This document shows positions 8,050 through 62,441 of a stretch of DNA of 64,000 nt, in pieces. The number at the start of each line of letters is the position of its first letter. Positions within the stretch are counted from its first letter, which is position 1. The stretch comes from Blasia pusilla. Taxonomy: Eukaryota. The notes under the pieces are model-generated. The model saw only the letters and a program-made list of their open reading frames with translations. It did no database searches and was not told the DNA's origin. Location: contig CM114271.1 of assembly GCA_050084515.1 (NCBI GenBank), positions 48,670,001 to 48,734,000 on the forward strand. The letters are read 5' to 3'. The position numbers were made by a program, and so were the translations under genes.

Positions 8050-11000
8050 CACTAGTACAAAAACCCCCTCTGGATGACTTAGAAAAATGACTAGATGTTA
8101 CTCAAACCGGGCCGGTGTGACTAAGTAATTACTTAACCAGACTTTAATAATAAAAATTACTCATATTTGTATAAGTTGTTACTAAATTTGAGGGTAGTCG
8201 TATGTGAGTCTCTTTTTTGTTACTCAAGATAGTCACTAAATATGACTTCACCTAGTCATTTTGTATGACTAGGTTAAGTCATAAGAAATGACTAAACGAG
8301 TCATAAAGAATGACTAGACAAGTAATAAAGAATGACTAGAGGAGTCATAAGGATTGACTAGACTCTTCATTAAGAATGACTAGACGAGTCATTAACTGTG
8401 ACTACTCAGAGTAATAAATAATGACTTTATGCGTCACAAGAGAATGACTTATCCATGTCATTTACAATCCTAGTCATTGACAATATCCAAATAACTATAC
8501 TAGTCATTATGTATAACATATTGCTTTATGATTGAGAAAATATGTACAGGAAATTAGCATTTGAGTCCATTTTGTATCCATGAATATGAATTACTCCTTC
8601 CTACCTATCCTCCCTATGCCTATCACTACTTCTCTTACATCCATGCAATGGAGATGTGATTATATCTGTTGTACAGTCCTAATGCTACCAACATCGTATG
8701 AAAACATACAAGCACATTACTCCTATACCAACCCATCCATTTTGTAGCATATGATCAGATCAGTTTTTCACAGTTAAAAATCCTCATCTATTGAAAGATA
8801 CAGCTAGCAAATTTTTTCTTACATCCAATTGTGGCCATAAGTCCAAAGCATATCGAGAAATATGTATGGCAATACATATTTCTTCTTGCAGACCTCTCTC
8901 AAATGGAGAACAGAATGCCCATCTGGAATGTCACGTCCATGGAAGGTAGAACAACCATCATGCAAGGTGCCATAACCTACAACCACAAAGGGGTTCTCAT
9001 CTGATATCAACTACTGCAACGGAGGCACAACAAATTTCAACACCGTCTTGGTAGCCTCTCGGGTCCTCTTCTTGAGTGTCGCTCTTCTCACCACCATTGG
9101 CTTTTGCAGAAGATCCAACTAATCCAACTCCATGGGTCCATCACTCCCCAACATCCCTACACTATCCTCATTCTCCTCTGAAAATACCGTGGCCTCCAAA
9201 TTACATCTCCGCGATGTCCTCACTTGGCGTTTGCCTATAACGGCCGGGGCCTCATCCGTGGTCTCTACAATCACAATCAACAAGAACGTCTCACTGCCCT
9301 TTCAAATAGATCATGATTTTCAGCAACTTCAAAGTAAAATGCACAACATCACTCTAAACTCACATACATGAACTCAAAGGGTCACCCGCAAACACAGTAG
9401 CATTAACCTCTCTTGTGCCTCCCTTTTTCTTTGGACCAATTGATGCAATGCCAACATACTTATCTAGCCCTCTTATTGTATGAACGCCCTTGGCAACCTG
9501 TGGAAGAACCGGAGGCGAAGGCACAATAGTGACCAGCTACGGAGAGGGTGCACTCTCCCTTGAAGGTGGTCCCGTAATTGGGTGAGGAGAGGATACACTC
9601 AACCGCATAGAGGCAAGTGCTCCACTAGGAGCAGGGTCTCGATCACTAACTCCATGAGAAGAGGAGACAACTCTTGGATTTTCCGATCTCTCCTTGGAAC
9701 CCCTTATGTCCTCATGGTCCCTTCTCAAGCTCATGGAAATCAATTCCATCAACTTTGTGAAGTTCTCTTGTTGATTAGCAACAACAGTCTTTATGCTTGC
9801 CTCTAGCACGTCCATGCTGCTGGAGAATGCATCCATGTGATCAATTATATAAGTCACAAACCCGGGCAACAACTCCTCCATAGACTTTAATCGGGCTCAG
9901 ATCTCTGTCAGCTCAGATGTTCCCAGCGCTTGAAATACAAGACCTGGATCTCAGTCTATATCAATAGGCATGTACTAGAAATACACTAGATTCACCTCTA
10001 CTCTAAAGCAACCAGATGCAAATACTTGCTTTGACACTGTACTTGTACCATAACTCCTTTGGTTCTTTGCCTTCTCATGCACCTGCGCCTTAGTAGGGGT
10101 TTGCCCCTTCTCTTTTCTCTACAACACATGTTACACCGACCAAGTTCAATCTACCAAACACCAATTTCCAAATTATATGCATGGTGGTAATAGAAATTAA
10201 AGATGGGTCCTTCAATATTATTCATACTAGGCGCTCTGCAATTGGTGCATTTCCTTTTCTTCCTACAGGGTTTGGATTGGTCACCGCTGCCCGTGCTTTG
10301 GACATCTGCTCACTCTTTGTCTTTGCACTCTCGCTCATGAAGTGCGTAAGTAATCTCCCCCATTGGTTGGGGTCTACATGAGGTGGTGGGGCCACCTTCT
10401 TGCCTCCTCCAGCTTCTTTCCATGTTTGACGCAATCTAAATCTCTCAGTCTTCACCATTCGTTGTGCATATTCCTCCAAACATGGAACAACCACTCCATT
10501 GCCATTGTTTCCAACATACTCCCATCTAGCAAAAATATCACTCAACACCAAATTCCAATCCCCTGAGTGTTGGTCTCAAAAATTCACAATGGAGATGTCA
10601 ATCCATTGCAACGCCTCGGCTCTAAAATCTGCATGCCACCTATTCTTTCCTTCTGAAGTTGTGGTGATCCAACCACAATTATTCACACCCACTTTTTCGA
10701 CCTTTACCCCCTCGCCTTGCACACTGCTCTCAATCACTGAGTTTGGTGTGTATGTTGTCCCTATGCTTGCCCGTCGCAAGCCTAGAGTCGTATAGTTTGC
10801 TGCACACATGAATATCTTCAGTCAAGACTGCTGCCCACTTTGCAAGTCTTTATGCCTACAAACAGACTCTATGCATCGATGTCAGGTCACTAGTTAGTGA
10901 AAGCACGAGGAAGAAATTCTCCAAATAGGGATGATACTTCTCTATATATATGTGACTTGCTATTACCTGCAACCTTTGTCATTTGAAATCCTTGAGTGGG

Positions 11001-12569: not shown

Positions 12570-15500
12570 TGTCACGACTGTTAGGATAGATCGGTGGGAT
12601 CTAGCAGAGCGTCTGCACGAGTAATGGAGGATAGGCCCACGAGGTTCAGAATGACCAGTTGAGGCCCCGGGAAACCTGAGAGAGCAGGTTTCCCCTTCGT
12701 TTTGGCTCATTTGGAGCCATATTGAGAAACTTACTATTTTAGGTAAGTACCATTTTGAGTATATGACCGACTTTATATTTTTGATAAATGGCCCTTGACC
12801 TCCTACATCAGGTCAAGAGCCAAGAAGGTGACTTGGGAGAATATGTTACCATGGAGAGAATTTGGGAGAGGGGACGGGGTATACCTCAAGGAGAGAGAGC
12901 TTGAGAGCTCATTCTCTCTTTGTTGAACCTCTTGGCATGAGGCGAAAGAGCTATGGTCCCTTGCCTTGTGAGTGTAACCCAAGCCTCTCGTTAGGAGAGT
13001 GGGTTTGGTTTGACATGAGGGAGAATGCACACCTTGACAGTTATGGTGTGAGATGGTGTAGAGAGAGATTGGATCTTACTTTACAAAGAGAGAATGAGAG
13101 AGTGAGAGAGCTTCATGGGGGGAGCTCGCTGGTCACTCGTTGTTTATGCCAGTTGGGGACGGTGTTTCCCATTCAGCGGCTCATGGGAGTGTTCACCGGA
13201 GCAAGGGTTTCTTTGATTGTTCTTTGCATTTGCCGATTTTTCGTGTAGAAGAGTGGCGCGCGGAAGCGCTGCCCAATTTCTGATAGAGATTGATTATGGG
13301 GGCGCATTGCCCCATGCCGATGCTCTTGAGAGCACCATGTAACTTTTTGATTTGTATTTCTACAGGTTTTACATTTTTGTTGGGAGAAATCAGTGCGGAG
13401 TGCTGCCAAATTTTGTATAGGAGAAAGAGACATGGGGCTTTACAACAGTCCCCGTCACTTTTTACTGAAATATCCAATTGCAAATATTTTTTGATTTTGT
13501 CGTAGATCATGAAGCTGTGCATGTTGTGCAACAAATAGTGTGCAATTTTAAGATACGAGAAAAAAGTTATGGTCAATCTTGCAAAAATACCATTGTTAGG
13601 CGATTTTTAGGGTTAAATTGTTCAAACCCTAAATCAGCCGCCACGCCGGCGGCGGCCGTCGCCATCATAGTCACCATCAACGGTCAATCATCATTGTCAC
13701 CGTCATCGGTCAACTGCCATCGTCACCGGTCAACCGCCATCGTCACCGGTCAACCATCACCATCACCAGTCGGCCGTCACCATCAACGGGCAACCATCAC
13801 CATCAACGGTCCACCGTCCGTTGTCCACCCTTTGGTTGCCATTGCCGCCGTTACGGAGTGGAGGGTCTTCCACAACGTTTGTTGATTCTCTGACTTGCCT
13901 CGCCACCACGTACTTTGTTTTAGCCGTCACTATCATCGAAATTTCGTCATCAAGCAATGATGGCAGATGACCTCCGATTATGGTGTTTGAGTTTTGATTT
14001 CATGCTGCTACTTTTTGATTGGTAGCCGCTAAACAACGATCGAGTAACGTGCCATGACGCTCGTAGCCGCAACGCGCTGCTGATTGCCGCGCCGTGCCGC
14101 TTGTGGCCGCACCGCATCGTCTCGATCGCGGAGCCGCACCGTCATTGTGGAGCAGAGTGTGGGTTTATTGTTGATTGAGGAGGGTATGCCACTAAGTGCC
14201 GCATCCCACCATCAAGGGTCGTGCCGTTCGTAGCCATTTTGTGCCGCCTGCAACGCCGCATTGTTCACTAGAACCGCACTGTCTATCGAGGAGTTTTGAG
14301 CAGCGTCAGTACAGGAGGAGTATGACTTGCTGATTGGAGGAGTTGTCTCCACAACCGAGTTGGGGTTGAGATTTGCAATTGCTGAGGAGCGACATTGACA
14401 TGTGTTCACGTTACCCATTCTGGTCCTTTACACTACACGTGTGAGGGATTATGGGATTTGGGTAGTTTATTTGGGGATATTGGGTGTGTGGATGATGAGA
14501 GCATCATTTATGTATGTGTTTTAGGAGACATAGACCTGTGTGGGATGTCCGGAGCTGAGGGTAGGTTGTCAATGAGATGATAACCTGGTCGATTTTCCGC
14601 ACCACGCCGCTTGTTGCCGCACGTTACACGTCTCGGGGAGGGAGAGTGTAGATCGAGTGCCGCATTTTTGGGATGAGTGATTGAGGGATTACTGGGGAGG
14701 TGAGAGTGATTGGGTGAGAGGTGCACGAGGATCATCACGGCGTTTGTTTGGGACTTTGAGAGGCGAGGTGGTGAACCCGAGAGTAGCTCTAGAGGTTTTA
14801 CGCGGAGTGGCGCGAGATTCCAAGGGTCTCCACGTGAGGGACCACCTTGATCTCCTTCTGTGTCATCGTCAGAAGAGGGGGAAGGTGTAGAGGAGTTTGT
14901 GAGCACATCGCCATACATTGTGAGTGGTCCTACTAGTTGGGCATACGAGATGGACAACTGGAGTAGAGGACCGCGTAGGTTTTCATGTGTAGTAGGTACG
15001 ATTTCATAGAAGAGTTTAGGAGTTGGTGCGATTCCCAACGGGCTAGGAACTCTACAGAGTTCAACCCGTTTACAGTATGGAACGGTATGTTCCAGCATTT
15101 AGAGTGGGCGCCCATGGACGATTACCATGAGTTCTCTTAGAGATATGCACGTGAGATCGAGGCGTGGAGGCTCTACTATGACCCACATTATGTGTCATGG
15201 ATGGAGCCGTTCCCAGATGAGGAGGAGGAGTTAGGAGAGGCTACTTCCTCTTCCACTAGTGATGTTTAGAAGGGGTCACTCGCACGGGAGCAGTTGCACC
15301 GTCTAGTCGGGTTTGTCCCAGGTTCAACCCTATGGTTGAGTTCTTTGCTGAGTTGAGGGCGAGCTACCAAGGGGTATGGACGGAGAATTTGCGGAGCATC
15401 CACGACTTCCAGAGGCGCCCAGGTGAGAGTTTGCATGAGGCTTACACTTGCTTGCGCCAGTTGATCAACGTCACTCAGGGGATGACAGAGGCTTAGGCTA

Positions 15501-18500: not shown

Positions 18501-19785
18501 GGATTTTGCAGGACCTTTGCCTTTGACGGAGCGTTACAGTCTTTATGTGTTGGTGATGGTCGAGCACTTCTCGAAGTGGATCGAGTTGGTTGCATTTCCT
18601 GACAAAGCAAGTGAGGGAGTAGCTTATGCCTTCCTTGATAGAGTGTTGAGTCATTATGGCGCACCGGCTAAGGTGTTGACAGACCAGGGTATCGAGTTTC
18701 GTGGTGAGTTCCAGGCCTTGTGTGATCATGCGCTAATCGATCACCGCACAACTTGGCGGAGAGAGTTGTGCATATGGTGAAGAGGGGTTTACACAAGTAT
18801 GGCTTGTAGAGAGTTCACCTAGGAGATTGGAACCTCAAGTTGCCGTGGTTGGCGATGGGATACAGATTCAGCCGGCAGGCATCCTTAGCGTCTTTTTCAC
18901 CGTACTTGCTACTTTATGGCCAAGAGCTAGATTTACCTGCGGCCATTCATCGAGATGCTGGTGAGGTGCTGGACCTTGATGACCCAGATGTATGGGTGCC
19001 AGCATGTTCTCAGAGGGCTGAGTTGTTTCGGAGAGTGATGCCCATGGCGTTCGAGAACTTGGCAATTGCGCATCATCGTGATATGGTGAGGTTTGCGACT
19101 ATTCGGGGTGGTGGTTATCGACTAACTATCCGGAGGTTTCATTAGGGAGATTATGTCTTCTTGCAGCACACGGCACCGACGACGTTGGATGTGACTACAG
19201 GGCACACTATCCTGAGAGTGCGTGATGTTTTGCCCTCCTGGTGTGGAAGGACCATGTGCGTAATTGTACCCCATGTCACCTTCCTAACATTGATGGTATA
19301 TTAGATCCGAGCTCAACAGTAGTTCCTGCAAGCTTGCGTTGTATGTTGTGTGGTTCTGCCCGTGGTGCGGCCACGATGCTAATCTATGATGAATGTTCGA
19401 GAGGTTGTTATATGGCATGTCTGACGCCACCTCTCACTAGGGTTCCTCGGGGAAAATGGATGTGTCCGAGATGTAGATAGAGAAGATACTAGGTAGGTTT
19501 TGATTCCACCTTTTTCTGTGACAGAAGGCGACTAACAATGGGGCCATATGAGCACCCGGCCTTTCTTGCTCTTAGTGTCTGAGAGATGTATGTCATAGTA
19601 GGTAGGGATAGATGGCTATCTGGAGCTAGAGGGACCTAACCACTAGCTAGGGGGGCGATTGGAGTTATTTTAGTACATCTTGTCTCGTTGTTTGGATGCC
19701 ATGAGTTAGCATGGGATGGTGCGTGTTTATGTGTGTGTTTGGTGACAGCAATTTTTGTTGTGTAGCGATGTGTATGCGCACGATA
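12570..19785 (+). mobile_element. MTase-Gypsy family copy with both termini (B - internal - PPT - A), internally deleted between gag and mid-MTase
   Basis: Starts TGTCACG and ends GCGCACGATA; gag about 14900-15680; MTase C-terminal part 15755-16150; RT 16460-17470; RNase H TDHQPLKWL; integrase WSLDFAGPLP, LTDQG; PHD finger 19330-19480; purine tract AGGGGGGCGA at about 19649. Confidence 0.85.
19241..19480 (+). pseudogene. Integrase C-terminal PHD finger (decayed)
   Basis: CMLC..LIYDECSRGCYMACLTPPLTRVPRGKWMCPRC, a C4HC3 pattern with two ligands mutated. Confidence 0.8.
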
Positions 19786-28594: not shown

Positions 28595-28700
28595 TGTCGT
28601 GCGAATCCACATCGTCATACAACATACATCGATGACATACCATACTCACATACATACATAACATAGACAAGAGCATACACAAACACAAGTGTACCACAAC
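28595..28700 (-). repeat. Terminal repeat A, outer copy
   Basis: Near-identical to 29071-29176 (tgtcgtgcgaatccacatcg...gtgtaccacaac). Confidence 0.95.
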
Positions 28701-29068
28701 TGAAATCCGTGAAAGACCTACAGTCATAAAACACGTATAGAATCACATACAATCGAGCCAAATCCACTCCACGATGGGAGAATCCAAGTCAAAGCTTGCA
28801 GGAACCACCATAGCCAAGAGCTCTACTCACTACCAAGGCTAACTCCCAACACAACAGGCTCAACTCAAAGAACTAACTGTTCTTTGAGTGCACTCCATAC
28901 TATATCCTCCAACCTAAGAGCGGGTCCTACTGGAAAAGTCACCCTCAACTGAGTAACCCCCAACCCTATGTATGAAACCGCATCTCTACCTAGACACTAC
29001 GGCCCTACATAAGGTATGGCCTCTATTAGCACACTATACTCTACAACGTAATCCGTATGGTCATGACT
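28701..29068 (-). repeat. Terminal repeat B, 3' copy
   Basis: Collinear with 38202-38569; differences are mostly transitions. Confidence 0.95.
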
Positions 29069-29070
29069 GC

Positions 29071-29176
29071 TGTCGTGCGAATCCACATCGTCATACAATA
29101 TACATCGCTGACATATCATACTCACATACATACATAACATAGACAAGAGCATACACAAACACAAGTGTACCACAAC
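29071..29176 (-). repeat. Terminal repeat A, inner copy, preceded in element sense by a polypurine tract
   Basis: Duplicate of 28595-28700; the minus strand reads AGGGGGGTGA immediately before it (about 29177-29186). Confidence 0.92.
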
Positions 29177-29349
29177 TCACCCCCCTAACTGGCAGTTAGG
29201 TCCCTCTAACTCCCAGGTAGCCCTATACATCTACTACATGCTATACACCTTCTTGGATGTACGAATCAGAAGGCCGGGTGCTAGGTTGCCCCATCGTTAG
29301 TCGCATATCTGTAATCCATATCACGCAAAGATTAAGTCATCTACCTCTC

Positions 29350-30550
29350 CTAAGTACATCGAGGACAAACCCACCTTCCAGTAGGAACAACATCCATACG
29401 TGGAGTCAAACATATCATGTGCCAACCCCTAGAACACCGATCACACACCAACATACGGGTTGCGTTACCAGCAGACCCACACAACATGCACCTCAAGCTA
29501 GCACGTATCATGGCTAAGCTTGGGTCAACAGTACCATCCAGATTTGGAAGATGACATGGCGCACAATTACGCACATGGGCCTTCCAAACAACTCCATCAC
29601 AACCCTCCAACATGAGAACTCCAAAAGCTAGCACCTCGCGCACTCATAAAATAGTGCGGCCCGCCGTCACATCCAACGTTGTCGGTGCAATCTGCTGCAA
29701 ATAGACATAGTCCCTCACATGGAACCTACGAATCAATGGTCGATAACCTCTACCCCGAATGGTTGCATACCGCAACGTATCCCTATGTTGAGCCATGGCA
29801 AGATTCTCAAAGGCTGTTGGCATAACTCTCCGAAAGAAATCTGCCCGCTGAGAACACACTCTCATCCACATCTCTGGGTCATCAAGGTTCACCACCTCAC
29901 TAGACTCCCGACGAATTGCTGCTGGCAAGTCTGGATCTCGGCCGTATAACAGAAAATAAGGTGAGAAGGAAGCCAAGGATGCTTGGCGACTGAACCTATA
30001 CCCCATGGCTAGCCATAGCAACTGAATATCCCCGTCTCCAAGATGCCCCTTCTGTAGGCTATACTTGCGCAATGCCCTCTTCACCGTCTGAACCACACGC
30101 TCAGCCAAACCATCCGCCTCTGGATGATCTCGAGACGTGGTCCGATGATCAATCAACGCCTTGTCACACAAGACTTGAAACTTACCCTGAAACTTTGTAC
30201 CCTGGTCGGTCAGTACTTCAGCAAGTGCACCAAAATGACTAAGCACTCTATCAAGAAACGCATACGCCGTTCTCTCACTTGCCTTGTCAGGTAATGCCAC
30301 CATCTCAATCCACTTGGAGAAGTGCTCCACCATCACCAACACATATCGATGATGTCGTACAGTCAACGGTAACGGTCCCGCAAAGTCCCCACTCCAACGA
30401 TAATCCAACCCCATAATAGGCAAGGGGTGTAACTATGGTGTAGGGGCATTGAATGATGCCCTCACCCGGTCACAAACCATACAACGTGACACCAACTGTT
30501 GCACCTGAGTATGCATGCCACGCCACCAATACTAACCAAGGAGCAAGCTA
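29350..30550 (-). pseudogene. DDE integrase with C-terminal PHD finger
   Basis: DFAGPLP, LTDQG, GLAERVV (29644-30423); CMLCG..LVCDRCSRGWHMICL..WVCPRC (29350-29643). Confidence 0.92.
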
Positions 30551-30759
30551 TTCCTACGGACCAGTAGGGTGCCAGACATAGTGAATGGCAAGGAGCTAGA
30601 CCGTGTTCTTCAACGTGCTAAGAGGTATCGATTGGAGGGAACACATATTCTCCGTGTGTGGGAGGATGGTAGAGTACGAGTAGTGTTGCATTTGGCTCAG
30701 AGAGAGCGCATTGTGCGACATGCCCATAAAGAGTTGGGACATTTTGGGGTAAAGCGCAT

Positions 30760-32640
30760 CATCATGAATATCACGCTGATCCGTACAACCATCTCCAACC
30801 TTAGGATCTGAAGGCTGGCCATCTACCCTCTGACAAGAGTAAGATGTCAAGTGGTCCTCCATACTAGAGTCCACCCCTAACCAACATAAAAAGGCGGATG
30901 CATGCCAACCTCGCACCATCTCCTCATCAACCTCGCCATGCCATCTGGCCCCAGTTGCATCCTCTTGGCTAGTACATGGGTTCCTACTCAACCCATCATC
31001 ATCAAGGTTGGCAACTTCAGGTCCATGTACCATCTGGAAGTCATACTCCTGTAAGATAAGAGCCCACCGTGCAAGCTTCCTTGTAAGCTTGCAGACTCCA
31101 TCAACCACTTGAGCGGCTGATGATCAGTAACAAGGGTAAACTGTGTGCCAAACAAGTAACACCTAAAGTGTGCCACCGCCCACACTACTGCCAAGCACTC
31201 TCCCTTATATGAACTAAAGCGCAACTCCGTTGCATTATTCGAACGACTTGCATAGGCCACCACAAACTCCATGTGCTCATCATCATGTTGTGTCAACACC
31301 GCTCCAAGTCCCAACGTACTCCAATCAGTGTGTAACTGAAATGGGCGCCCTCTGATAGGTATCCTCAATATAGGCGCCGCCACCAACTAGGCCTTGAGCT
31401 CCACAAAAGCTCTCTCCTGATCATCTCCCAAGTGCTACTCTTGATATGATTTCAGAAATTGGTTCAAAGCCTTTGCCATAGCACTAAATCCCTTCACATA
31501 CCTCCGATAGTAGTTCGCCAATCTCATGAATGCCCGAACTCTACTCACATATACCGGACGCGGAATAAGTGCAATAGCCTCCACCTTTGCTTGCTGAACT
31601 CCCAAACCACCGGGATAGATCACATGACCCAAGTACTCAAAATCCTCATGGAAGAACTTACACTTTCCTCGATGCAAACGTAGACCATGAGCTTTCAACC
31701 GCTCAAACACAATCTGCAAATGTATCTGATGCTCCTCCACCGTGTTACTGAACACCAAGATATCATCAATGTAACACCGAAAAAAATCCAACCCTGCTAG
31801 GATCCTGTCCATCACTCTCTGAAACTCGGCATGTGCATTCTTCAACCCAAAGGGTAAGAACTTACACTTTCTTGGATGCAAACGTAGACCATGAGCTTTC
31901 AACCGCTCAAACACAATCTGCAAATGTATCTGATGCTCCTCCACCGTGTTACTGAACACCAAGATATCATCAATGTAACACCGAACAAAATCCAACCCTG
32001 CTACGATACTGTCCATCACTCTCTGAAACTTGGCATGTGCATTCTTCAACCCAAAGGGTAAGAATTTCCACTTGTACAAACAATCCTTGCCATGAGAGTT
32101 GACACCCCAAAATGTTGTGTTGGCCTTGTCCCTCTCTCGAATCGGCAATTGATGGTATCCTGCCTAAAGATCCAAAGTACTGAAAATATTTGCGTGTCCC
32201 ACCACATGTATAGGCATGGCATACTTATCGGCCTTGGTTTGCCGATTGATAGGACGGTAATCTCCACACATCCGCCTATCCGTGTAGTTGCCATGCATAT
32301 AATTTTTAGCAGGCATGACAGTGGCTGGTGCATACTCTCTATGCGATAACTCCACTAATCCAGCCTCCAAAAGGTCCAACGTCCTACTCTGAATCAGGTC
32401 CCTCTCCATATCACTATATCGGTAGGGACAACGGAAGATTGGCGTATCACTAGCCAAATCAATCCGTATACCGGGTCCAACCAGAGCACCCAACTCCTTC
32501 ATGCTAAAGGCAAAACAACTCCTATAAGCACGTAGGAATTGTGTCAAGCGTCGTTTCTCACCTCCCGTAAGCTTGGGCCCAAGTAATGGCTCCCAAGTCT
32601 CCTCCACTGGCGCACTAGAGGGAGAGGACGATGCCATTGG
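30760..32640 (-). pseudogene. Reverse transcriptase and RNase H
   Basis: RMCGDYRPIN, STLDL, LPFGLKNA, CYIDD (twice), HTDWSTLGLGAVL, TDHQPLKWL. Confidence 0.95.
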
Positions 32641-32899
32641 CTGCTACGTAACCCCCTCACAAGATGGTACACCCTTAGCTACACCATCATCTGAGCAAAT
32701 AACTCCTCCACCAGCATGAGCAACCAACTCCACATGCCCAGCCATTACATCCCATTTACTCCAAGGATGCAAAATACTACTCTCCTCGCCCCCAACCGAT
32801 GCCTGTACGGTCCTGGTAGGCATGGAGCTCATTACAAGGGATGGAAGACCCACAGACATAGTCCGAAGTCGACGCGGCTTGGCCATACCAAGACTCAAA

Positions 32900-33830
32900 A
32901 TCCAAGTCAAACAATTCAGATCCATGGCCTGACCCAACACATGACGTCGTGAAGCCTCAAAAATGGAAACAACCGTTGTCACACCAGTAGCAAATCCCAT
33001 CGCACGCTCTCTCTCATCAGCATTAGGCTCCACCAACTGTCGCACATGAGAATCCCATACAAGCCCGGGACCACCTTCCCTGTAGGCATGTGACGAGGGA
33101 AAACTCACAAATGTGGGTAGTGCCATCCTAGGCTGGCCCACACGGTTCACCACTGCCATGGGTGACCAATCAATAACCCTCACCACTTGAGAAAGTCGCC
33201 AAGATCAAGATACTATCCATCAGAAGGCAAGGATCATTGACGGCATCATATGCTCGATGTAGAACCTCCCTAGGCAACAAGTTTTTCCACCACAAGCGTG
33301 GACGATGTGCACGGGAGCCAACTCGCGCTGCATCCAACAACACCGCTGGTCCAATCCAAGACCACACCTCATGAACACTCGCCATCATCCGGGTCCAAGT
33401 GTCACCCAACAATGGAACATTCTCCAGAATGTAAGCTGGAGCACGTGCTTGATGAACCTGAATATGTCGTAACATCTCCCAAAACAATCGAGACCTAGGG
33501 TCGTGTAATCCCTCACCACGACCAGCACGTGTATGACCCTGACATGGCCATCCAGCAATCACCAAATCCACAGGACCAACCCTCTCAAGGTCCTACGCCC
33601 CCAACAATGCAATGTGTGACGGCAAAGCATGCTGGTACTCACGAACAGCTGATGGCGGAAACAACTCAGGATATCTCCGCATCAACTGACCGATATGTCA
33701 GGATGAGACTCTCTGGACCGTCTCATCTCACTCCACATACATGTATCTCCGCACAGGAATACCGGTCTGCAACACTGCAACCAAACCAATGCTAATCCCA
33801 CCAAAGAGATCTAACACACAAATGCCCTCC
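32900..33830 (-). pseudogene. DNMT3-like C5 cytosine methyltransferase domain inside pol
   Basis: Motif I VLDLFGGISIG..YVE; motif IV DLVIAGWPCQG; motif VI YILENV; motif VIII RAHRPRLWW; motif IX ERERAMGF; motif X RRHVLGQAM; canonical order. Confidence 0.92.
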
Positions 33831-34234
33831 GTCGGATACTGCCATACAATGGGTTTAGTATCCAAAGGGGATAACCCAACTAGACGAGAAGTAGGAGTTC
33901 GCCATGGGGCATCCTCTTCCTCGTGAGATATAATAGCCTCACACCAAGCCTCCTGCACTAGGCGATCAGCCTCCTGCCGTAGTGCACCGCCTGAACTCCA
34001 AAGTGGCACATCCAACAATGAGGATGCCACTGCTGCAAAACTAGGGACCTCCTCTACCTCCTCATGCACAGGAGAATCCATAGCAAAAACATTACCCTCC
34101 AAAAAGTCTCCTGGCCAAGTGACTATTCCACTAAAACTAGCCACAGATGCTAACACCGTTGGGGAAGACCCTCCTGGTCGAGCCCCATAAATAAATCTCA
34201 CAGGAACTTGGCTCATACGTCCATCCCCGGACTG

Positions 34235-34726
34235 TCAACCAGGTCTATAAGACACTGTCTCAGTCCAGTAATCCATCTGAAAACCCATCGGGTACAATAC
34301 TACTCCTCCAACTAGTACATCATACGACTTGGCTGATATGACCATTGCAGGTACTCCCAACCGGGAGCTATCAGTCGCATGATGTGGTCTCAACTGTACA
34401 GAAAACTTCTCCCGTGTCATGAATTGAGACCTATCATTGGCTCCTCCAAGTGATGTTTGAATCTGGAATGGGTAAGGCTCAAGCTCTAACATCCGAATAC
34501 CCAAACCAATACATGCCGCCTTTCCCAACATCAAAGGTTGGGCACCAGAGTCTAACAAGACTCTATCTGGTCTATACACCTGTCTTGTAGGACTCACCAA
34601 TCGGAATATTCCACTTTGGTTGTCCAACATACATACACCAGGTGTAAGCCTCTCACGATCAATGGCTTGCCAGGCTGGTAATGCATCCATCTTCGCCGCC
34701 GCCGCCAAGTAGCAAGTGGTACTCAA
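34235..34726 (-). pseudogene. Retropepsin aspartic protease
   Basis: VLLDSGAQ active-site motif and YDVLVGG. Confidence 0.85.
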
Positions 34727-35419
34727 TGCTACACCGACATAGAGGGTCGCTCCACCGCAACACCCTCATCCACCTCAAAGACGTAGCGATAATACCCCAC
34801 GTTCACACAACGTGGCTGCTAGCTGAAATACAGGAGCTAAGTCAACTCCTAAAGCCATCAGTTCCATGGCCGAAAACAATGGGGATCCCAACACTGAAGT
34901 TGTCATCCGCAATACTGCACTGGATGTTGCATCTGTGTCTACTACACGCGATGTAGATGCCTCAGTCCCCACTGTCACCTCAATAGGCTGCGTAGGAACC
35001 ATGGATGGAGTCCTAAGCACCTTAGACAACAAGAATGACTGGGGAAGCCTAGCCTGCCTCCCAGCCTCACCCCTCTGTGGGTCCAAATCTACAGTAGCAC
35101 CACGTGGCTTTGACGCTTGAGTGGCTCCTCTCGTAACTGCAGCTGATGCCTCAACCTGTGCTGCACTCGCCATATAAGAGAGATCATCCCCTCCATAAGA
35201 GGTGGAAGCCCTTGCTTCCGAACCTGATCTGTGTTGGATACCAGCCATAGTAGCCAACTTTTGCTCCAACTGCTCAATCCTGGCAGCCATAGCTGACTCT
35301 GTCGTAGTCGTAGGGGTAGCCACAGTAGGCTCTCCAACCACTGATCCACCTCTACCATCCCTACCACCTCTACCACCTCAGCCTCTCAGAGCTACTCCAC
35401 CACGGCCGCGGCCTGATCT

Positions 35420-36700
35420 CAACTCTGGATGAAGATCAAAGCAACGCTCTCGAGGAGGACCTGGTCTCCCGCAATGATCACACTGAGTTGGGGCCGACTG
35501 AGGCCCATCCTCCAAAGTCCGTCTCCCATCCTCTTGGGGATAAAACTTCCTAACATGATCACCTCCACATGTCCAACACGACTGTTCTTGCTGCGGGCCG
35601 GTGCAGCAAAGGAAGGCAATGGTCTCTGCGCAAGTGTCCCTCTAGGACCTGACTGAGGTCGTGTGTACCCCCCATGACTCCCACTACTACTACCACCACC
35701 ACTACTACGAGACTGTGAGGTGGGCTACTGAACACGAGAAGTAGTAGTTGTATCCCTACTGAATGCGGATGTCACCACTCTCTCCTTCACCATGTTAAGC
35801 TCAATCTTTTTAGATAGAGCAAACACATGGGTCAATGTGGGTGAATCATCACTCATAAGAGTAGCATCACGTACCCTACGGTGCAACTCTCTGTCCAAGA
35901 TCCTATACTAAAACTGGACTGCCTAAGCCTCAGTCACACCCTAGGTAACTGAAATCAAGCGTCGCATACAAGTGTATGCCTCACGAAGACTCTCACCAGT
36001 CTTTCGCTCAAATTCCTGAAGACTTCTCAACTTCTCTGTCTTCACTCCCTGATAGTTCTTCTTCAACATCTTGAAGAACTCTGCAACCGGGCTAAACGAT
36101 GGTGGGGCACTAGTACCCCCATTGGTACCTCCATCGATACCTCCACTGGTACCCCCACTCCGGCTCGTACTCGTACCACTCAACGTCGGGCTGGCTGGCA
36201 TAGTAGGAGCACTACTACCAATACCACCATAGGTGATAGACACATAGCCTGGAGACCAATATTGTCTCCACGCCTCAATCTCAGCAATATGGTCCTTCCT
36301 AAACTCATGGTAATCTTCCATGGGTGGTCCCTCCAAGTGCTGAAACAACCCCTTCCAAGCCAAGAAGGGTGTAAACAACGTGGCGTTCCGCAACATCTGC
36401 ATATCACACCACGTATCAAACTCCTACATGAAGTCCTCCAACTCAATGGTGCCCACTCCACCCGAGTATCGTCGTGGGCCCTTCATGGCCCCATATATCC
36501 CATCCATGTCCCAAATCAATGGAGCTGCAACACTCGATAACAACGTAGAAGACTCGGTGTTTGGAACATCCTCGTCCTCCTCTTCATCAACCGTCGGAAG
36601 TGGAAAAGGTAGCCGATACCTAAATCCACTCCGTGTGAAACCACCACTATCCGCACCACGGTCCCCAACCAGACCACCCGACAGCTCCGTGATGACCAAC
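35420..36700 (-). pseudogene. Gag-like ORF with two degenerate zinc knuckles
   Basis: LQEFERKTGESLREAY (retrotransposon gag-like); CWTCGGDH and CDHCGR..ERC read on the minus strand at about 35440-35580. Confidence 0.75.
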
Positions 36701-37311: not shown

Positions 37312-38201
37312 AGTTATACAACACGCAAATCACAAATCCTACAAAAATTGCCTCACGCCCAAGCAAGCAAGCTTGCTTTCTTGCTCCTTGCTCCTTGCTC
37401 CGCCTCTCACGCCCACTCGCCCCGAGCTACCACGAGTTGCCTCGAAGCCTCAAAATGCTCGAGATATGCCCTGTTCGCCATGCTTTGCTATGGAGAGAGG
37501 CCCAACCAGGGCGCCCCCAATGGGATAGGCGTCTCCAACAACCAACAAGTCACCAACCAACCAACCCCTCCGATCCGTTGTCCACCATAGCCAGACCTTG
37601 AGCTAGTCCGCAAAATTTCTATCAACAATTACTCCACAAATACTCAACCAAAATTGAATCTATTTTGAAAAATTCAATTGACCACCATAGCTATCTCTCC
37701 CCAAAAAATCAGCTACAACTGAGCTCCGTACTCTGAGTTAAAAATCATACAAACTTGTTGTCCATACACCTCAAGAATCGTAAATCCGACCGCGCTTCCG
37801 CCCAGATTCATGCACGCAGAAATCCGCAATGCTCCACACACTCAAGCAGATAGCTTCACATAAGATCACAATACAAGTAGCAACAGGAACCTCTCACCCG
37901 ATTTGGATGAACTTCAACACAGCTTCCGCACTCCAAGCTCTCCATATCAGAAAACCGTCGAACACGAACCAGAATCTTCAATCCTTGATAACTTCCAAAT
38001 CCCTTGACGAAATCCGGCGATCTAAAGCGCGTTGGAAAGCTCTCAGCAAGGCGCTTCTTTCCCAATCAATCACGCACCAAATTCCTACCTCCAACATAGG
38101 CCACAAGCCACGAACATCCACGGCTGAGTACACAATCAGCCCTAACCAGATCCTACTGATCCACAATCGAAGCTACCATCCATCTACTCTAGTTCTTTGA
38201 G

Positions 38202-38569
38202 TGAAATCCATGAAAGACCTATTGTCATAAAACATGTATAGAATCACATAAAATTGAGCCAAACCCACTCCACGATGGGAGAATCCAAGTCGAAGCTTGC
38301 GGGAACCACCATAGCCAAGAGCTCTACTCACTACCAAGGCTAACTCCCAACGCAACAGGCTCAACTCAAAGAACTAATTGTTCTTTGAGTGCACTCCATA
38401 CTATATCCTCCAACCTAAGAGCGGGCCCTACTGGAAAAGTCACCCTCAACAAAGTAACCCCCAACCCTATGTATGAAACCGCATCTCTATCTAGACACTA
38501 CGGCCCTACATAAGGTATGGCCTCTACTAGCACACTATACTCTACGACATAATCCATATGGTCATGACA
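38202..38569 (-). repeat. Terminal repeat B, 5' copy (promoter-bearing, LTR-like unit)
   Basis: Element sense TGTCATGACC...GGATTTCA; TATA-like GATATAG at about 38401-38407; internal hairpin 38364-38390. Confidence 0.93.
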
Positions 38570-45824: not shown

Positions 45825-47347
45825 TTATCTTGTTTTCGAAGCAGCTCTTGTTGCCTCTTCTCGAGAAGACGGGAATAGCTCCACGTATCGGCTTCCCAGA
45901 GTCATCTTGTCCTTGCTCATTGCAGCCTTCGATTCCGAAGAAGAGGCAAACTCCACAAAAGCCTCACCCGTCGCTCGCCCATCAGCGTGCGACACTATGT
46001 GCACGTTCTCATCTGTCAGTCCGTACTCTCTAAAGAAGTCGATGATGTCCCGCTTGGATGCAGAGAATGGCAGGCCCCTGAGCTTCAAAACACCTGTGTG
46101 CTCGAGATGATCCTTCTCGGAGGACGGCTTGCCCGGGGGAGTGGAGATGTGACCCCCGTCATCCTTAGGCTCGGCCACATCCGCCGCCACTGCCTGATAG
46201 TAATCGTGCTTCTTGCAACGGAATACCTCTATGTATCGGCGACCCATGTTCTGGCGATTTCTTTGCAGAGCGAAATCCACCTGCATTGGGGCACCAAACA
46301 CCACAAATGCTTCCCCGGAGAAACGTCCTTGCTTGCGCACAAGAAGGACGTCCACCACATCCAGCCCCGCAAAGAACTCGAAAACATCACTCTCGCTGCA
46401 GTTGAAGGGTAGACCCCGCAGTCTCACCACCGGGAAAGGGCGCGGTTGCCCTAAGACTTGAGCGATATTGGAACTTCCATAAGCCAAGCTGGCTTGCGAG
46501 AGCGCAGGGCCCCCGCCAAAATAAGGGCCCGCATCGATTAATCGCTGCCTTTTTGCCCCAACCTCGTATCCATCTGCACCTCCCCCGCTTCCCAAAAGAT
46601 TCCTTCAAAGATACATCCCAGCCCCCCGCCCACAGCCCAACCGTCAATATGTGCGCCCTCCCCTGGGAACCTATGATGCCACACATCAAGCTCTCAGATG
46701 TGTGCCCTCCCTTCATCACTCTCTAAATCCCTCAAGTGCAGTGCAGTGAAGTCATCATACATGTCAGATCTCAGGTAGTAAGCTTTGAAGATCTTAGCTC
46801 AGATGGAAGTGTTCGCTACGTCTGATGTTCGGAGTCTTAGATGACATGCTTAAAGATCCGAAATAGGACGAAATGAGACCAACATCGCTTGCCTATCCTG
46901 ATGAATGAAAACCAAAAGAGCCACTCTAGGAGGTTGCATTGAGAAAAAAATTTCTGCACCAGAAGTGACCTTTACAGGCACAGTTCTTAGCAGATGCGAG
47001 GACATGGTTCATCGGTCACCTTAGGTATTCAAAGTCGACGCTTACATAACCCTAAAGAGATCCCCGTTTATTCCACTCGCAACACGGCGAGCCGTGCAGT
47101 GTCGGTTCTTAATTCAATCATTACACGATGATGATGGACATAAATTCAAAAGTGGTAAATGTGCTACAGCAGAGACTTTTACGTATACCACAGAAAATGT
47201 AAGCTTAGTTACTTGATTACGGAGATTGTTCCTTCGTTGATTCGTTCGTTTCTCTACAAGGAAGAGAAGAGGACAGAGCTGGCTTGACTCGACAGATGAA
47301 ATAGAGTTAGTCCCCTTTCGCTCACTCACTTACCCTCTGGAGAACAT
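45825..47347 (-). CDS. hnRNP F/H-like RNA-binding protein with two quasi-RRMs; exons 47347-47334 and 46602-45825, 263 aa
   Basis: Two LRGLPF...GEAFV.F...MG/LG.RY.E.F qRRM blocks; exon 1 ATGTTCTCCAGAGG followed by GTAAGT splices in frame at AG 46604-46603 to give MFSRGNLLGSGGGADGYEVGAKRQR; no internal stops. Confidence 0.92.
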
Positions 47348-54609: not shown

Positions 54610-56896
54610 TTAAACATCTGGAATAGATGGACTTGCAGCATTCTCAACCTCATTTGTTGCTTCTATTGAAGGATCAACAATATACTTCTCAGGGTTCGAA
54701 TATACATATCTAAAGTTTGTAGAAATTTTCCAAAGTACTATTGATTCAACCAAGAGATCCTCATAATCAGGTACTAGCCCCTCTAAGGAAATCCTAAGTA
54801 CAACATCCAAATGTTTTGTCATCAATCTATTACGACTTTTAGTCTTAATAGTATTCTGAATAGAGAAAGCTCTCTCACAAATAGCTGTACTCACACATTG
54901 TACTCTAGCAATATTAGCTAACACAAGTAGGTTATAAAACTTACATTGCAAAGATGGACTCCAACTTACCATAGCCCACAAGTCTCGAAAGTTTCGGTCT
55001 TTCCACTCAGTTGTGGACATGAGCTTGAATGACTGAAATTCATGTTTCACTGCTCCAGGGTTTATAAGAGCGGGCTGCAAATGACCCCTCAGTGGTAATG
55101 CCACTCCAAAATGTGCACATAACTCATCTACCTCCTTACAACCCCAACTATTCAGCCCTACTTGCCTTGAAGGCATGTCAAGAGAATTCAATACCCTCAT
55201 TGCACCAATTAAATTGTTATCTTTGAACCGGTCATGTAAACCTGCACATACACTCTCTGAAAAATTCTTTTGAAAGGTTAAAGCAGATTCCAAGTCTTTT
55301 CCTGTCTCATCTCTCACCATCTCTATGCTATGGAACTTTCTACCCCTTATCTCAGATTGCAGGCGCTTCAGATATCCTCCAGGGGGGCCAAAATCAGGCA
55401 AAATATGGTACCCTGAATCTTCTGAGAAAGTAGAAGCATTTAAGTCATGGCTTTCCATCACAAAATTCATTGTAATGGAAGCAATTTCACAATTCACTAT
55501 GTTGCCAATAGTACTAACATCTACAAATTTGTATTGAAAAACTTTGCTCAAGTTTGCAAGAATTGACAAAATATCAGCCAGAAAATACAATAGGTAGATC
55601 ATTTGAAATGATCTTAACCTGTTGTATAGATTAGTAGCATTACCATCATCCTCAGAAGGCAAAATATCCCTGAAATACCTAAGAACAGATTCCAACGAAT
55701 CACACAATGTAGTCACTGCTTGCCAACGTGACAACCAACGAATTTTATGATACCTTTTCATAACCCTTTGGGAGTCATTGAGTTTCTCTTGCAATGTTGC
55801 AAGAGCACACTTCCTCTTGGAAGATCTCCTAAAATATCCGACTCTGACAAAGATTCAAGATGGAGTCTATATCTCTTGATGTCTCCTTGCAAGTTGGTGT
55901 TTTGGCTGTTGTCAAAGCAGCCAAATTGATCCTATGTGCTACACAATGCACAAAGAGCAAAAAGGGGTTTACCTTCTGCTTCAGTTGAGAGGCTACCCCA
56001 TTTTGACTTCCAACCATGGTTGAGGCTCCGTCAGAGCCAAAAGCTACCATTTTTGTACTCTCAAGCCCTGAATCCTTTATCAACTCCAAAAGAGTACTAG
56101 TAATAGCATTGGAGCACTTCTCTGGACATTGCATCAATCCTAGAAATGAACTCTGAACCTGGCCCTCTTCTAAGTACGTTACAAATACAACCAAGTGCCA
56201 TGTTACAGAAATATCCGTGGAATCATCTATCATAATCCCGAAAAAAGGAGACTTCTGCACTTTACTAAGGGTCCTTTTGAGAAGAACTTGGCTGATGTAA
56301 AAGCACATATCAGCACAACTCTTCTCATCCTGGTACAACTCTCTAGTCAATGGGGCATTCACAGAACATAACAACTTACACAAATTTGGGAATTTCACAA
56401 AAGGCAAGGCTTCCCTTGCAATGAAAGATGCATACTTAAATAAAGTCAATAAAGCTACATCACAAGTTCGATTAGTAGTTGCAATGGCCTTGGCCATGGA
56501 CCTGTTCCCTATGTTAGCAGCCCAAGAGAGCTTCATATGCTCATTAGATTTGCCATGATCTGTGAAGGCCGAGACCTTACAGTTTATGGCACCGTCCCTT
56601 GCAAACGAGCTCTTACCCTTTCCCTGTCTACAAACTTTGCAGAAAATCCTACCGCTTTCTACATGAAATTCTATCCAATCAAATAGAGAGTACCACATGT
56701 CCTTCCATGCATGTCGATTCTTATTGGCTATGCTTCCCAAAGGTCCATTGGATGTATCTACTTCCTTTCCATCTGATGAGCCTGACCTGCTTGACTCTTC
56801 TGAAAATAATTGACTACAATCTTTGTGTAACATTTCACTCATAGTTCTCTGTCTCTTGGCCATCTGAAGATGATGTCTCACCCTCCCCCCTTCCAC
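54610..56896 (-). pseudogene. hAT transposase (ZNF862/ZMYM1-like), single frameshift near 55850
   Basis: W..W..FDWI..FCKVC..H..H zinc finger; MIDDSTD; SDGASTM; HCVAH; RWLS; CERAFS dimerisation domain; ORFs 55829-56896 and 54610-55794. Confidence 0.88.
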
Positions 56897-57439
56897 TGTC
56901 TATGTCAAGTCACAATCGAGAACCTAACCCTAAACTAGAACAGATACAAGTTCACTACCTTGAACTAAAGAAACATGCGGCCAGGAGACCAAAGGCAACA
57001 AGTAGAGTTGTGGCCTAAAGGCAACCCCTTCTTCTTACAATGATAATAAGTGCAAAAAGAGAACGGCCCTAAACTCTGCTCATGCGAAAAAAAAACTCAA
57101 ATCCGGCTCATGCAAGACTGCAAGTGCACAAATCAGCACTATGCAATCTCGGTTGCTGCTGGAAGATAGTAGTGTAAACCAAGCTGTTGACTAAATACGC
57201 TGAACATTCAAACTCGGTACGAAAGCAACTAAGGCAAGGAAAACCAGCAAACAATGGAGGCCTTGAAGGGAAATGATTCACCCGAGCTATGGGTTTATAA
57301 GCCAAGAACAATACAAAGAAGAATAGAAGAAGACATGAACAAGAGAAGTTCCCAAGAACTATAGCGGCTCTGCAATGTAGACCCCGGGGCGGATTGAAAC
57401 TATGACAGTCCGCGGGCAAGAATATGATGTGAGCCGGGA

Positions 57440-58090
57440 AAAAACTTCTGCAAGCGAGAGTTGTGACAATTTGCAGGCAAGAGTCGCAAGAGACACACTG
57501 TCACAAAGACAAGCAAAAAGAAGTTGAGTCGAGAGTCGCTAGACCAAACTGTCACAAAAAGAGCAGAAAAGTGCCAAAAACGTGAGGAGTCGAGGCCCAA
57601 GAGGACGAGTGAGGCGGGAGCCGCGGGACGTAGGAGGCCGTGTGGTGACACAAAGTGTCACAAACACGAGCAAAAATCAGCTAAATCGAGAGTCGCTACA
57701 CCCAAACTGTCACAAAAAGAGCAAAAAAGTCCAAAAAACGTGAGGAGTCGAGGCCCGAGAAGACGACTGAGGCGGAGCCGAGGCCCGAAAGGACAAGTAA
57801 GGCGGGAGCTGCGGGACGCAGGAGGCCGTGTTGCGACACAAACTCGCACAAAGAGGAGCAAAAATCAGCTGAGTCGAGAGTCACTGGGCCCAAACTGTCA
57901 CATAGAAGATAAAAAAAGTGCCAAAAACGTAAGTCGAGGCCCGAGAGGACAAGTGAGGCCGGAGCCGAGGCCCGAGAGGACGAGTGAGGCCGGAGCCGAG
58001 GCCTGAGAGGACGAGTGAGGCCGAAAGCCGAGGCCCGAGAGGACTAGTGAGGCGGGACTCGGGAGCCGTAGGAGTCAGGACGCTGTGAGC
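57440..58090. repeat. hAT subterminal GC-rich tandem repeats
   Basis: Recurrent GAGGCCCGAGAGGACGAGTGAGGCCGGAGCC units and longer CAAACTGTCACAAAAAGAGC blocks. Confidence 0.8.
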
Positions 58091-61846: not shown

Positions 61847-62441
61847 TGTTGTGCGGATACATATCGTTACACAACATACATCGCTGGTCACATCTACACC
61901 ACACAACACCGATCTTCCACATATATGGGTCATCTTTCTCAAGTCCTCATCTTTCTCATGTAAAAATAAAGAGTAGTAAAAACGGCACACCCGGCCTAAA
62001 ACTCCACTCCTCAATCTACATCGGCATATCGAGCCTCGTCCACCCTGCGCTATCAAGGAATCCGGACGCTAACACCCCAGTCCTATCTCACACACATACA
62101 AGGAGGTGCTCCAATGGCCCAACATGAGAAAGATGGCTTAGGAAAGCCATCTTCCTCTCTTATATAGGGTTGGGAAGAGCCAAAAGGCTCTTCTCCCTAA
62201 AAATAGCTATCCTCTTGGTAACGTGCGCACACAGGTTACCAGAGGTGGATGACCTGGTCAACAAGTCACCCGGTTGTGAAAGACCTCAACAAGAAAGTTG
62301 TCAGAATCGACATTCCTGACACAATGGACCTATCCTCAACCTCATCCGACACCGTGGGACAAAGTTACACTCAAGATAGTCCGCTGGCTCCTACGCCCTA
62401 TCCACGATAGATCTCGGCCTTTCGGCTACTCAGATGTGACA
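61847..62441 (-). mobile_element. Solo B+A unit inserted in the MTase-RT linker
   Basis: TGTTGTGCG...GATGTGACA; 4-bp TSD GGTG (61843-61846, 62442-62445). Confidence 0.85.

Follow-up and report, generated by a model that had tools for sequence, protein, structure and literature searches.

KnitGypsy-Dnmt3 of Klebsormidium nitens is an element with Gypsy domains, a C5 DNA methyltransferase (DNMT) and DIRS-like repeats in the order A-coding-B-A-B (de Mendoza et al. 2018, PMC5890265), and its type has been named streptophyte Gypsy-DNMT3 (bioRxiv 10.64898/2026.05.21.726589). The element analysed here has the same combination of Gypsy pol, C5 DNMT and A-coding-B-A-B repeats (PMC5890265). The main text of that paper mentions neither a primer-binding site (PBS) nor a target site, and the word 'primer' refers there to PCR only; it contains no account of priming, target duplications or a hairpin. 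The literature searched, which was thin on subscription papers including the primary ones on the Tf1/sushi group, yielded one paper that names KnitGypsy, but neither priming in the DNMT Gypsy clade nor an upstream masking arm; supplementary data of Neumann 2019 (per-element PBS tables) and of de Mendoza 2018 may matter for how new these two points are. The element type is already known, as KnitGypsy-Dnmt3; the proposed priming in the clade and the putative masking arm would be the new part.

To our knowledge, self-priming has been proven only in yeast elements of the Tf1 type. In Tf1, the PBS pairs with the 11 bases at the start of the RNA, which RNase H then cuts (PMC7175516). The Tf1 group has a pretzel RNA structure and a terminal CA (bioRxiv 10.1101/2022.12.06.519325), in Tf2 the choice of start site decides whether a transcript can prime, and a start further downstream may prevail under silencing (PMC5341516), and Tj1 is among the self-priming elements of the Tf1/sushi group (PMC4600332). 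In plants, self-priming has been predicted in Tcn1 and in the TAR clade of Ty1/copia (Houba, Osr-1) (PMC6317226), and it is reported as not found in SM-Tcn1 (PMC2864245). Priming by a hairpin is discussed in PMC3601003.

The window, by which we mean the whole stretch of 64,000 nt of Blasia pusilla DNA that was analysed, contains an element that is, judged from its sequence, a Ty3/Gypsy retrotransposon akin to KnitGypsy-Dnmt3. Pfam searches of 11 frames of this element, a copy of what we call family 1, found a C5 DNA methyltransferase (PF00145, E 4.8e-10), reverse transcriptase (RT), RNase H, an rve integrase and a PHD finger; six of the 11 frames have no Pfam match or are gag- or protease-like without one, and none matches a tyrosine recombinase. 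The best solved-structure match is Ty3 Gag-Pol. The PHD finger, which close relatives also have, follows the integrase, and no chromodomain is present there. Named relatives come from liverworts, Sphagnum, Klebsormidium and Closterium. In an RT-RNase H tree of 114 rows, the relatives form one clade of 79 rows (SH-aLRT 100). This clade holds three K. nitens rows, which may not be KnitGypsy-Dnmt3 itself, and stands apart from seven chromo/SH3-type rows in a tree without named Tf1, sushi or Tcn1 references.

The copy at 12570 belongs to a separate family 2, whose RT-RNase H region is 72-77% identical to that of family 1, and a third family is also present within the window. The genome in which patterns were searched comprises 390 Mb in 26 contigs. 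Among the 10 and the 20 best pol loci, families 1-3 were the only ones wherever a B repeat was found, and the repeats were gone from one distant copy. When other junctions, which might have revealed further families, were sought by pattern, there were 123 matches versus 68 for the control, which is little excess. Several other features were seen along the way: a 204-bp tandem duplication within the RT of the family-1 copy (31652-32073), pieces of a hAT-type transposase (54610-56899), a piece of an RRM-containing host gene (45825-46604), a 22-bp tandem repeat (8255-8404) and an A-rich repeat of ~157-188 bp (57490-57996), all in the window, and an abundant chromodomain-bearing Gypsy with a long LTR (L356-L379; 1503 candidates).

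Table 1. Features of families 1, 2 and 3 in the window.
Feature	Position	Strand	Basis
Family 1: 5′ repeat B1 (U3 part, R, U5); starts TGTCATGAC, the putative integrase end	38203..38569	-	30/30 loci start here
Family 1: TATA-like box; other family-1 copies have TATAAG; 30 nt from the first T of the box to the A at 38375	38398..38405	-	sequence; function inferred
Family 1: U3 arm ACTCAAAGAAC, a direct repeat of the PBS; forms an 11-bp hairpin with the primer; masking role predicted	38380..38390	-	sequence, folding
Family 1: predicted self-primer at the start of R; transcription predicted to begin at 38376 or 38375	38364..38376	-	complement and TATA spacing
Family 1: short predicted helix stacked after the primer, TGAGCC (38363-38358) with GGCTCA (38260-38255)	38255..38363	-	folding
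Family 1: PBS ACTCAAAGAACTA, directly after B1	38190..38202	-	sequence
Family 1: coding region, broken; gag-like and protease-like frames, DNMT, RT, RNase H, rve integrase, PHD	29353..36423	-	Pfam (gag-/protease-like frames without match)
Family 1: polypurine tract (PPT); AGGGGGGCG in most copies of all three families	29178..29186	-	sequence
Family 1: repeat A1, 107 nt; begins at the PPT edge, ends GCACGACA	29071..29177	-	sequence
Family 1: A/B junction; GACA-GC-TGTC palindrome in intact copies, one base altered here; putative integrase cut site	29063..29076	-	sequence
Family 1: repeat B2; second arm copy 28889-28879, second primer copy 28875-28863	28702..29068	-	sequence
Family 1: terminal repeat A2; joined to B2 at the point where B1 has the PBS	28595..28701	-	sequence
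Family 2: B1; TATA-like 12880, arm 12888-12901, primer 12908-12923	12570..13082	+	sequence
Family 2: PBS	13083..13098	+	sequence
Family 2: PPT and single A repeat; copy without B2-A2 and without target duplication	19649..19785	+	sequence
Family 3: solo B-A unit, CACC target duplication; TATATAAG 62166, arm 62160-62146, primer 62135-62122	61847..62441	-	sequence
Family 3: 14-nt PBS copy at the B/A junction of the solo unit, before a partly deleted A	61961-61948	-	sequence

Read on the minus strand, the family-1 copy has the order B1, PBS, coding region, PPT, A1, GC, B2, A2 (Table 1). All 30 family-1 5′ loci start at a sequence like TGTCATGAC, with unrelated flanks and no A repeat within 1.5 kb. 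B ends at 38203 without a CA, the A at 38202 being a base of the PBS, and the 5′ repeats of the four lineages discussed below end in TC, TT, TT and TC. Since A starts at the edge of the PPT and B ends at the edge of the PBS, the LTR of reverse transcription is A+B; the integrated element opens with the start of B and closes with the end of A. One locus (L095), and possibly a second (L107), has PPT-A-GC-B-PBS between two internal regions, which is an ordinary LTR in tandem and thus also indicates an LTR of A+B. The junction palindrome GACAGCTGTCA has 911 matches on both strands versus 39 for the control, and its 2-nt spacer (n=33) is GC in 14 cases, AC in 12, GT in 6 and TC in 1. Perfect 4-bp target duplications flank 5/8 complete elements of family 1, 7/11 of family 2 and 3/6 of family 3, from 20, 20 and 8 loci fetched, respectively; the window's own family-1 element has no clean duplication (ATAT vs ATGC).

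Shorter forms were observed as well. Solo B-A units have a perfect 4-bp duplication in 5/8 cases (L137, L141, L145, L148, L157; L253/L243; L261/L251, the solo and single-A set), and so do 2/2 elements with a single A (B...A), which either recombined or are integrated one-LTR circles. A 1036-bp tandem in L191 that could be read as a TRIM was ruled out as such, being a local duplication that includes flank. A2 is on average closer to its own A1 than to others (mean distances 0.035 vs 0.058, 0.040 vs 0.066 and 0.058 vs 0.066), and its own A1 is its nearest neighbour in just 2/28, 2/19 and 2/18 cases, with no separate A2 lineage.

Split direct repeats are also found in Ngaro, PAT and TOC1, and we know of no target-site duplication in the DIRS order. 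SymbioDIRS-Dnmt3 is a further DIRS-order element with split direct repeats (PMC5890265). Our element shares with that order the A-coding-B-A-B layout, which is equal to an end-joined two-LTR circle opened within one LTR, but differs from it in having a DDE integrase and 4-bp target duplications, and no tyrosine recombinase was found here. From these sequences, we infer that B...A-B-A is the product of an end-joined AB...AB circle opened at the A/B palindrome, and integration by way of such a circle seems fairly probable. A precedent is the foamy virus integrase, which cleaves the palindromic junction of two-LTR circles (PMC1180852). In both systems, an integrase would cut a palindrome made of two joined att sites, but the palindrome proposed to be cut here lies inside the LTR, away from the ends of reverse transcription.

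How reverse transcription starts is suggested by the sequence that follows B. An earlier note on this DNA had proposed that a self-complementary site takes the place of a tRNA PBS, and both pairs that it named are present: TAGTTCTTTGAGT at 38376-38364 with ACTCAAAGAACTA at 38202-38190 on the minus strand in family 1, and CTCATTCTCTCTTTGT at 12908-12923 with ACAAAGAGAGAATGAG at 13083-13098 on the plus strand in family 2. Its further observations, that the primer segment lies about 25-30 nt after a TATA-like box and that no TGG-type PBS follows B, also hold, as 29 nt separate the first T of the box (38405) from 38376 and there is no TGG within 5 nt of the end of B. Anchored at the PBS, the complement is 13 nt long in family 1, 16 nt in family 2 and 14 nt in family 3, and none of 2000 dinucleotide shuffles of B reached this length in any family (best, 10). 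Pairing is perfect at 24/30 family-1 and 22/30 family-2 loci, proportions biased upward by queries that contained the PBS; with a family-3 query that did not, 14/30 loci carry the PBS and 11/14 are perfectly paired. A two-part pattern with both family-1 halves occurs at 788 places in the genome versus 0 for a reversed control. In a blind scan of 959 kb, composed of loci enriched for these families, the three family pairs were the three commonest long-range complements. In the commonest form of each of the three families, the predicted helix after the primer has 6/6 pairs, and one of them has changed on both sides.

It might be argued that reverse transcription is primed by a host RNA, such as a fragment of a tRNA or a small RNA, with the self-complement being secondary. 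In a screen proposed in the earlier note, against 43 tRNA genes that represent 16 anticodon types, none of them for Met, Ala, Asp, His, Leu, Ser, Tyr or Val, the longest shared stretch was 5-6 nt and no 3′ end matched. The restriction to 16 anticodon types leaves some room for a tRNA primer, and an LTR-derived small RNA would share the sequence of the self-primer. However, each of four distinct PBSs matches its own LTR, in addition to the lack of a TGG and, in the tRNA genes screened, of any shared stretch longer than 6 nt, and we consider a host primer very improbable.

The claim that the two segments covary between subfamilies was borne out when it was checked in four lineages, three of them here and one in contigs from another organism, whose different PBSs of 13-16 nt each match their own B. 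Between families, the PBSs differ at 7/13, 8/13 and 7/14 shared positions, and every difference is mirrored in the primer. Cognate primer:PBS duplexes have energies of -17.3, -23.6 and -19.9 kcal/mol, and non-cognate ones about -3 to -8 (-2.6 to -7.6) kcal/mol. Family 3, which is absent from the earlier note, was found by a junction search; its 3′ repeat showed TATATAAG and a hairpin, and its PBS was predicted from this repeat before any PBS-bearing loci were seen. The fourth lineage (L272/L273, in a clade of ~60% amino acid identity) has a TATAG, a 13-nt primer and PBS, and a spacing of 176, and the 13-nt complement of L272 was reached by 0/2000 shuffles. The spacing between primer and PBS is thus 174, 175-176, 175 and 176 in the four lineages, and the distance from TATA to the first A is 30, 31 and 32 nt in three families. 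All primers end in GT and all PBSs start with AC. A family-1 relative on a metagenome contig (L194) has 10 perfect pairs at a spacing of 170, which 2/2000 shuffles reach.

These four lineages are few as independent points. A more distant contig (L274, 4611-5072; 46% identity) keeps the junction palindrome and has a 12-nt complement at a spacing of 350 that overlaps a TATA-like word, with no clear arm of the kind described below; no usable repeat-PBS pair was found in L275-L281. Within family 1, the outermost pair in the first 50 of the 788 places is T-A in 14, C-G in 22, T-G in 12 and C-A in 2 (Fisher p 0.0007, or 0.002 when the copies of a local tandem count as one), a covariation that weighs little because the copies are related and the base may lie at -1. 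The contigs L272, L273, L274, L275, L276 and L277 are eukaryotic retrotransposon contigs in bacterial genome bins, probably through contamination, and in L276 and L277 a DNMT motif lies in a frame overlapping pol.

The junctions between B and A would record where the cDNA ends. The earlier note had taken the end of B to be the true U5 boundary, and in all three families the PBS indeed starts at the point where the 3′ B passes into A. This junction is exact in 19/26, 18/29 and 16/23 cases in families 1, 2 and 3, and the longer inserts are PBS prefixes of 3-14 nt: ACA in two neighbouring copies in L145, ACAT in L137 and, at a true 3′ B/A junction, 14 nt in L182. The junction of the family-3 solo unit in the window has 14 nt of PBS, a partial repeat of the PBS and a shortened A, within a perfect CACC duplication, and an internal deletion could be an alternative source of this remnant. 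Both 14-nt remnants (L182 and 61961-61948) stop at the end of the complement or at most 2 nt from it. Inserts of a single A (2/26 and 7/29) are ambiguous, and exact as well as +A junctions occur in two family-2 subtypes, which fits a junction that forms afresh in each cycle. The remnants fit a primer pairing of about 14 nt from the first base after B. By the core-promoter rule of TATA-to-start distance, the TATA spacing favours the A that lies one base deeper in the primer, so that the start is uncertain by one base; the predicted starts are 12910/12911 in family 2 and 62135/62134 in family 3.

A complement in this place might also be an inherited inverted duplication, or a structure for translation or packaging apart from priming; structures in 5′ UTRs are common, and priming is here predicted from sequence. 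However, the complement starts exactly at the cDNA end defined by the B/A junctions, its spacing is fixed, and its change across lineages is fully compensated, and we regard an origin apart from priming as extremely improbable. The covariation in four lineages, the fixed spacing and the PBS remnants at junctions together make self-priming, as proposed in the earlier note, the best reading. On this evidence, the Gypsy family probably uses the first 12-14 bases of its own RNA as the primer of reverse transcription.

Upstream of the primer, we noticed an arm that the earlier note had not described. Such an arm, a near copy of the PBS, is present in all four lineages, and each family's arm pairs best with its own primer. 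The resulting hairpin is 11 bp long in family 1 (38390-38364, which includes the primer), ~14 bp in family 3 and 12 perfect bp in L272, whereas in family 2 the stem is bulged. The hairpin has a folding energy of -8 kcal/mol or lower in 48/48, 64/65 and 52/53 copies with an intact primer in families 1-3. In family 2 the hairpin is modestly above shuffles (6-78/300), as it is in L272 for the sequence window used (31/500). The TATA box of family 3 abuts the arm, so a TATA-driven start must lie in the loop or the primer. At L196 (start) and L135, a family-3 element is inserted in the arm/primer hairpin of family 2, with an AGCT duplication.

We then predicted how the arm affects pairing, by folding 30/63 copies in four sets (9/24, 3/3, 9/26 and 9/10; sense only). 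For RNA that starts at the primer, the median primer:PBS probabilities are 0.96, 0.97, 0.86 and 0.71. They are 0.00, 0.00, 0.12 and 0.00 with 100 nt of real U3, and 0.77, 0.77, 0.41 and 0.68 with shuffled U3. The corresponding values for L272 are 0.87, <0.001 and 0.81. When only the 25 nt of the arm were shuffled, pairing was not restored in family 1 (median 0.01; 0.71, 0.34 and 0.50 in the others), and other U3 sequence thus also competes in the fold model. We also considered whether the arm keeps plus-strand strong-stop DNA from snapping back, but this was not supported, as the arm wins in 2/5 folds with DNA parameters. On the RNA models, we lean towards the view that the arm masks the 3′ primer copy and read-through RNA.

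Alternatively, self-priming could be correct and the arm a by-product, for example a further copy of the PBS made by template switching or snap-back in the course of reverse transcription, or a promoter feature without a role in priming. As a direct repeat of the PBS, the arm could be made by copying errors at the U3/R border, and the failure of the arm-only shuffle to rescue family-1 pairing, the mixed DNA folding and the lack of a clear arm in L274 are also in line with a by-product. However, the arm differs among the four lineages and pairs best with its own primer in each family tested; it is an inexact copy of the PBS, with mismatches, G-U pairs and a different loop; and metagenome relatives (L193 and L194) keep the pairing despite changed bases. 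We thus find a by-product possible, though doubtful.

RNA reads were available from three stranded runs with the same species label. Reads over the element are mostly sense, and two variants each of the primer and the PBS are expressed. Coverage is strong over U3, where reads enter from A; it fades across R, and where B ends it has come down to that of the internal region. Among the loose ends listed for these runs, none reads through from B into A. The three runs have no pile of RNA 5′ ends at 38376, and reads of the 3′ copy exceed those of the 5′ copy several-fold. A small rise in depth from 38390 to 38354 (79 to 92, 155 to 163 and 81 to 101) could also result from a dip in coverage at the hairpin. 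Because the RNA 5′ end was not located by RNA-seq, we infer self-priming rather than observe it. In all three runs, some reads jump back 289 nt within B, from 38540 to 38252, and come from a rearranged expressed copy or a circular RNA. In 2/3 runs, RNA fragment 3′ ends pile at 38408, 18 nt upstream of the arm (31 and 26 molecules).

This pile, near the hairpin, could be taken to suggest that the hairpin itself is the primer, such that an RNA ending at the B2 hairpin folds back and primes the minus strand, as proposed for DIRS-like elements. The stability and conservation of the hairpin and the DIRS-like repeat layout would agree with this idea. However, it leaves the PBS without an explanation, and the B/A junctions lie at the PBS edge, with PBS prefixes kept. 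Moreover, read depth runs on through R past the hairpin, and the pile at 38408 lies upstream of the arm. We therefore think priming by the hairpin highly unlikely.

Self-priming with a masking arm could proceed as follows. RNA polymerase II would start ~30 nt after the TATA box, in the hairpin loop (38376/38375), and the RNA 5′ end would thus be without the arm and could pair with the PBS, which lies 174 nt further downstream. If Tf1 is a guide, RNase H would then cut after ...GU, and RT would begin at the last base of B. Both the 3′ primer copy, which lies in B2, and RNAs started further upstream would carry the arm and fold the hairpin, and a primer folded in this way could not occupy the PBS and be cut, a cut that would lose R. 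Ordinary strand transfers would then give a linear cDNA from PPT to PBS with LTRs of A+B. Its ends would be joined, sometimes with the primer left on, and the integrase would open the GACA-GC-TGTC palindrome within one LTR, yielding B...A-B-A.

This scheme resembles that of the Tf1/sushi group in several respects. As in Tf1/Tf2, Tj1, Tosmo1-3, Tf1/sushi elements and Tcn1, the PBS directly follows the 5′ repeat and is the complement of the start of R, and as in the Tf1/sushi group, the primer lies about a TATA distance downstream of the promoter and extra helices are predicted to flank the primer duplex; as in Tf2, the choice of start site would decide which transcripts can prime. Of the Tf1 pretzel features, the predicted folds contain the central duplex, a helix that follows the primer and a stem in U5, but no LTR duplex with sequence downstream of the PBS. 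On the other hand, our element has a PHD finger instead of a chromodomain, a 5′ repeat ending in TC/TT instead of CA, a permuted B...A-B-A structure instead of two full LTRs and a primer of 12-14 nt instead of 11, as well as a putative upstream masking arm that is unmentioned for the group in the literature examined. The earlier note's comparison with Tf1-type elements is apt for the way the priming would work, whereas the lack of a chromodomain, of a terminal CA and of two full LTRs speaks against membership of the Tf1/sushi group. The TAR clade is similar in that a plant element has a tRNA-free PBS matching its own LTR, but it belongs to another superfamily and has ordinary LTRs.

We tentatively extend this reading to the streptophyte DNMT/PHD Gypsy clade, which may self-prime outside the chromoviruses. 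In such a clade, the hairpin at the start site would be an anti-primer switch, so that only correct 5′ ends prime while the 3′ copy and read-through RNA are silenced, and integration would occur from an end-joined circle cut at an internal palindrome, so that the ends of reverse transcription are freed from recognition by the integrase. A large streptophyte Gypsy clade, whose DIRS-like repeats had been noted once and left without explanation, would thus be added to the self-priming elements. The arm suggests how an identical primer in the 3′ R is kept off the PBS, which is a problem of any self-priming element. Finally, an LTR of A+B makes clear why thousands of copies would be misread by standard LTR finders.
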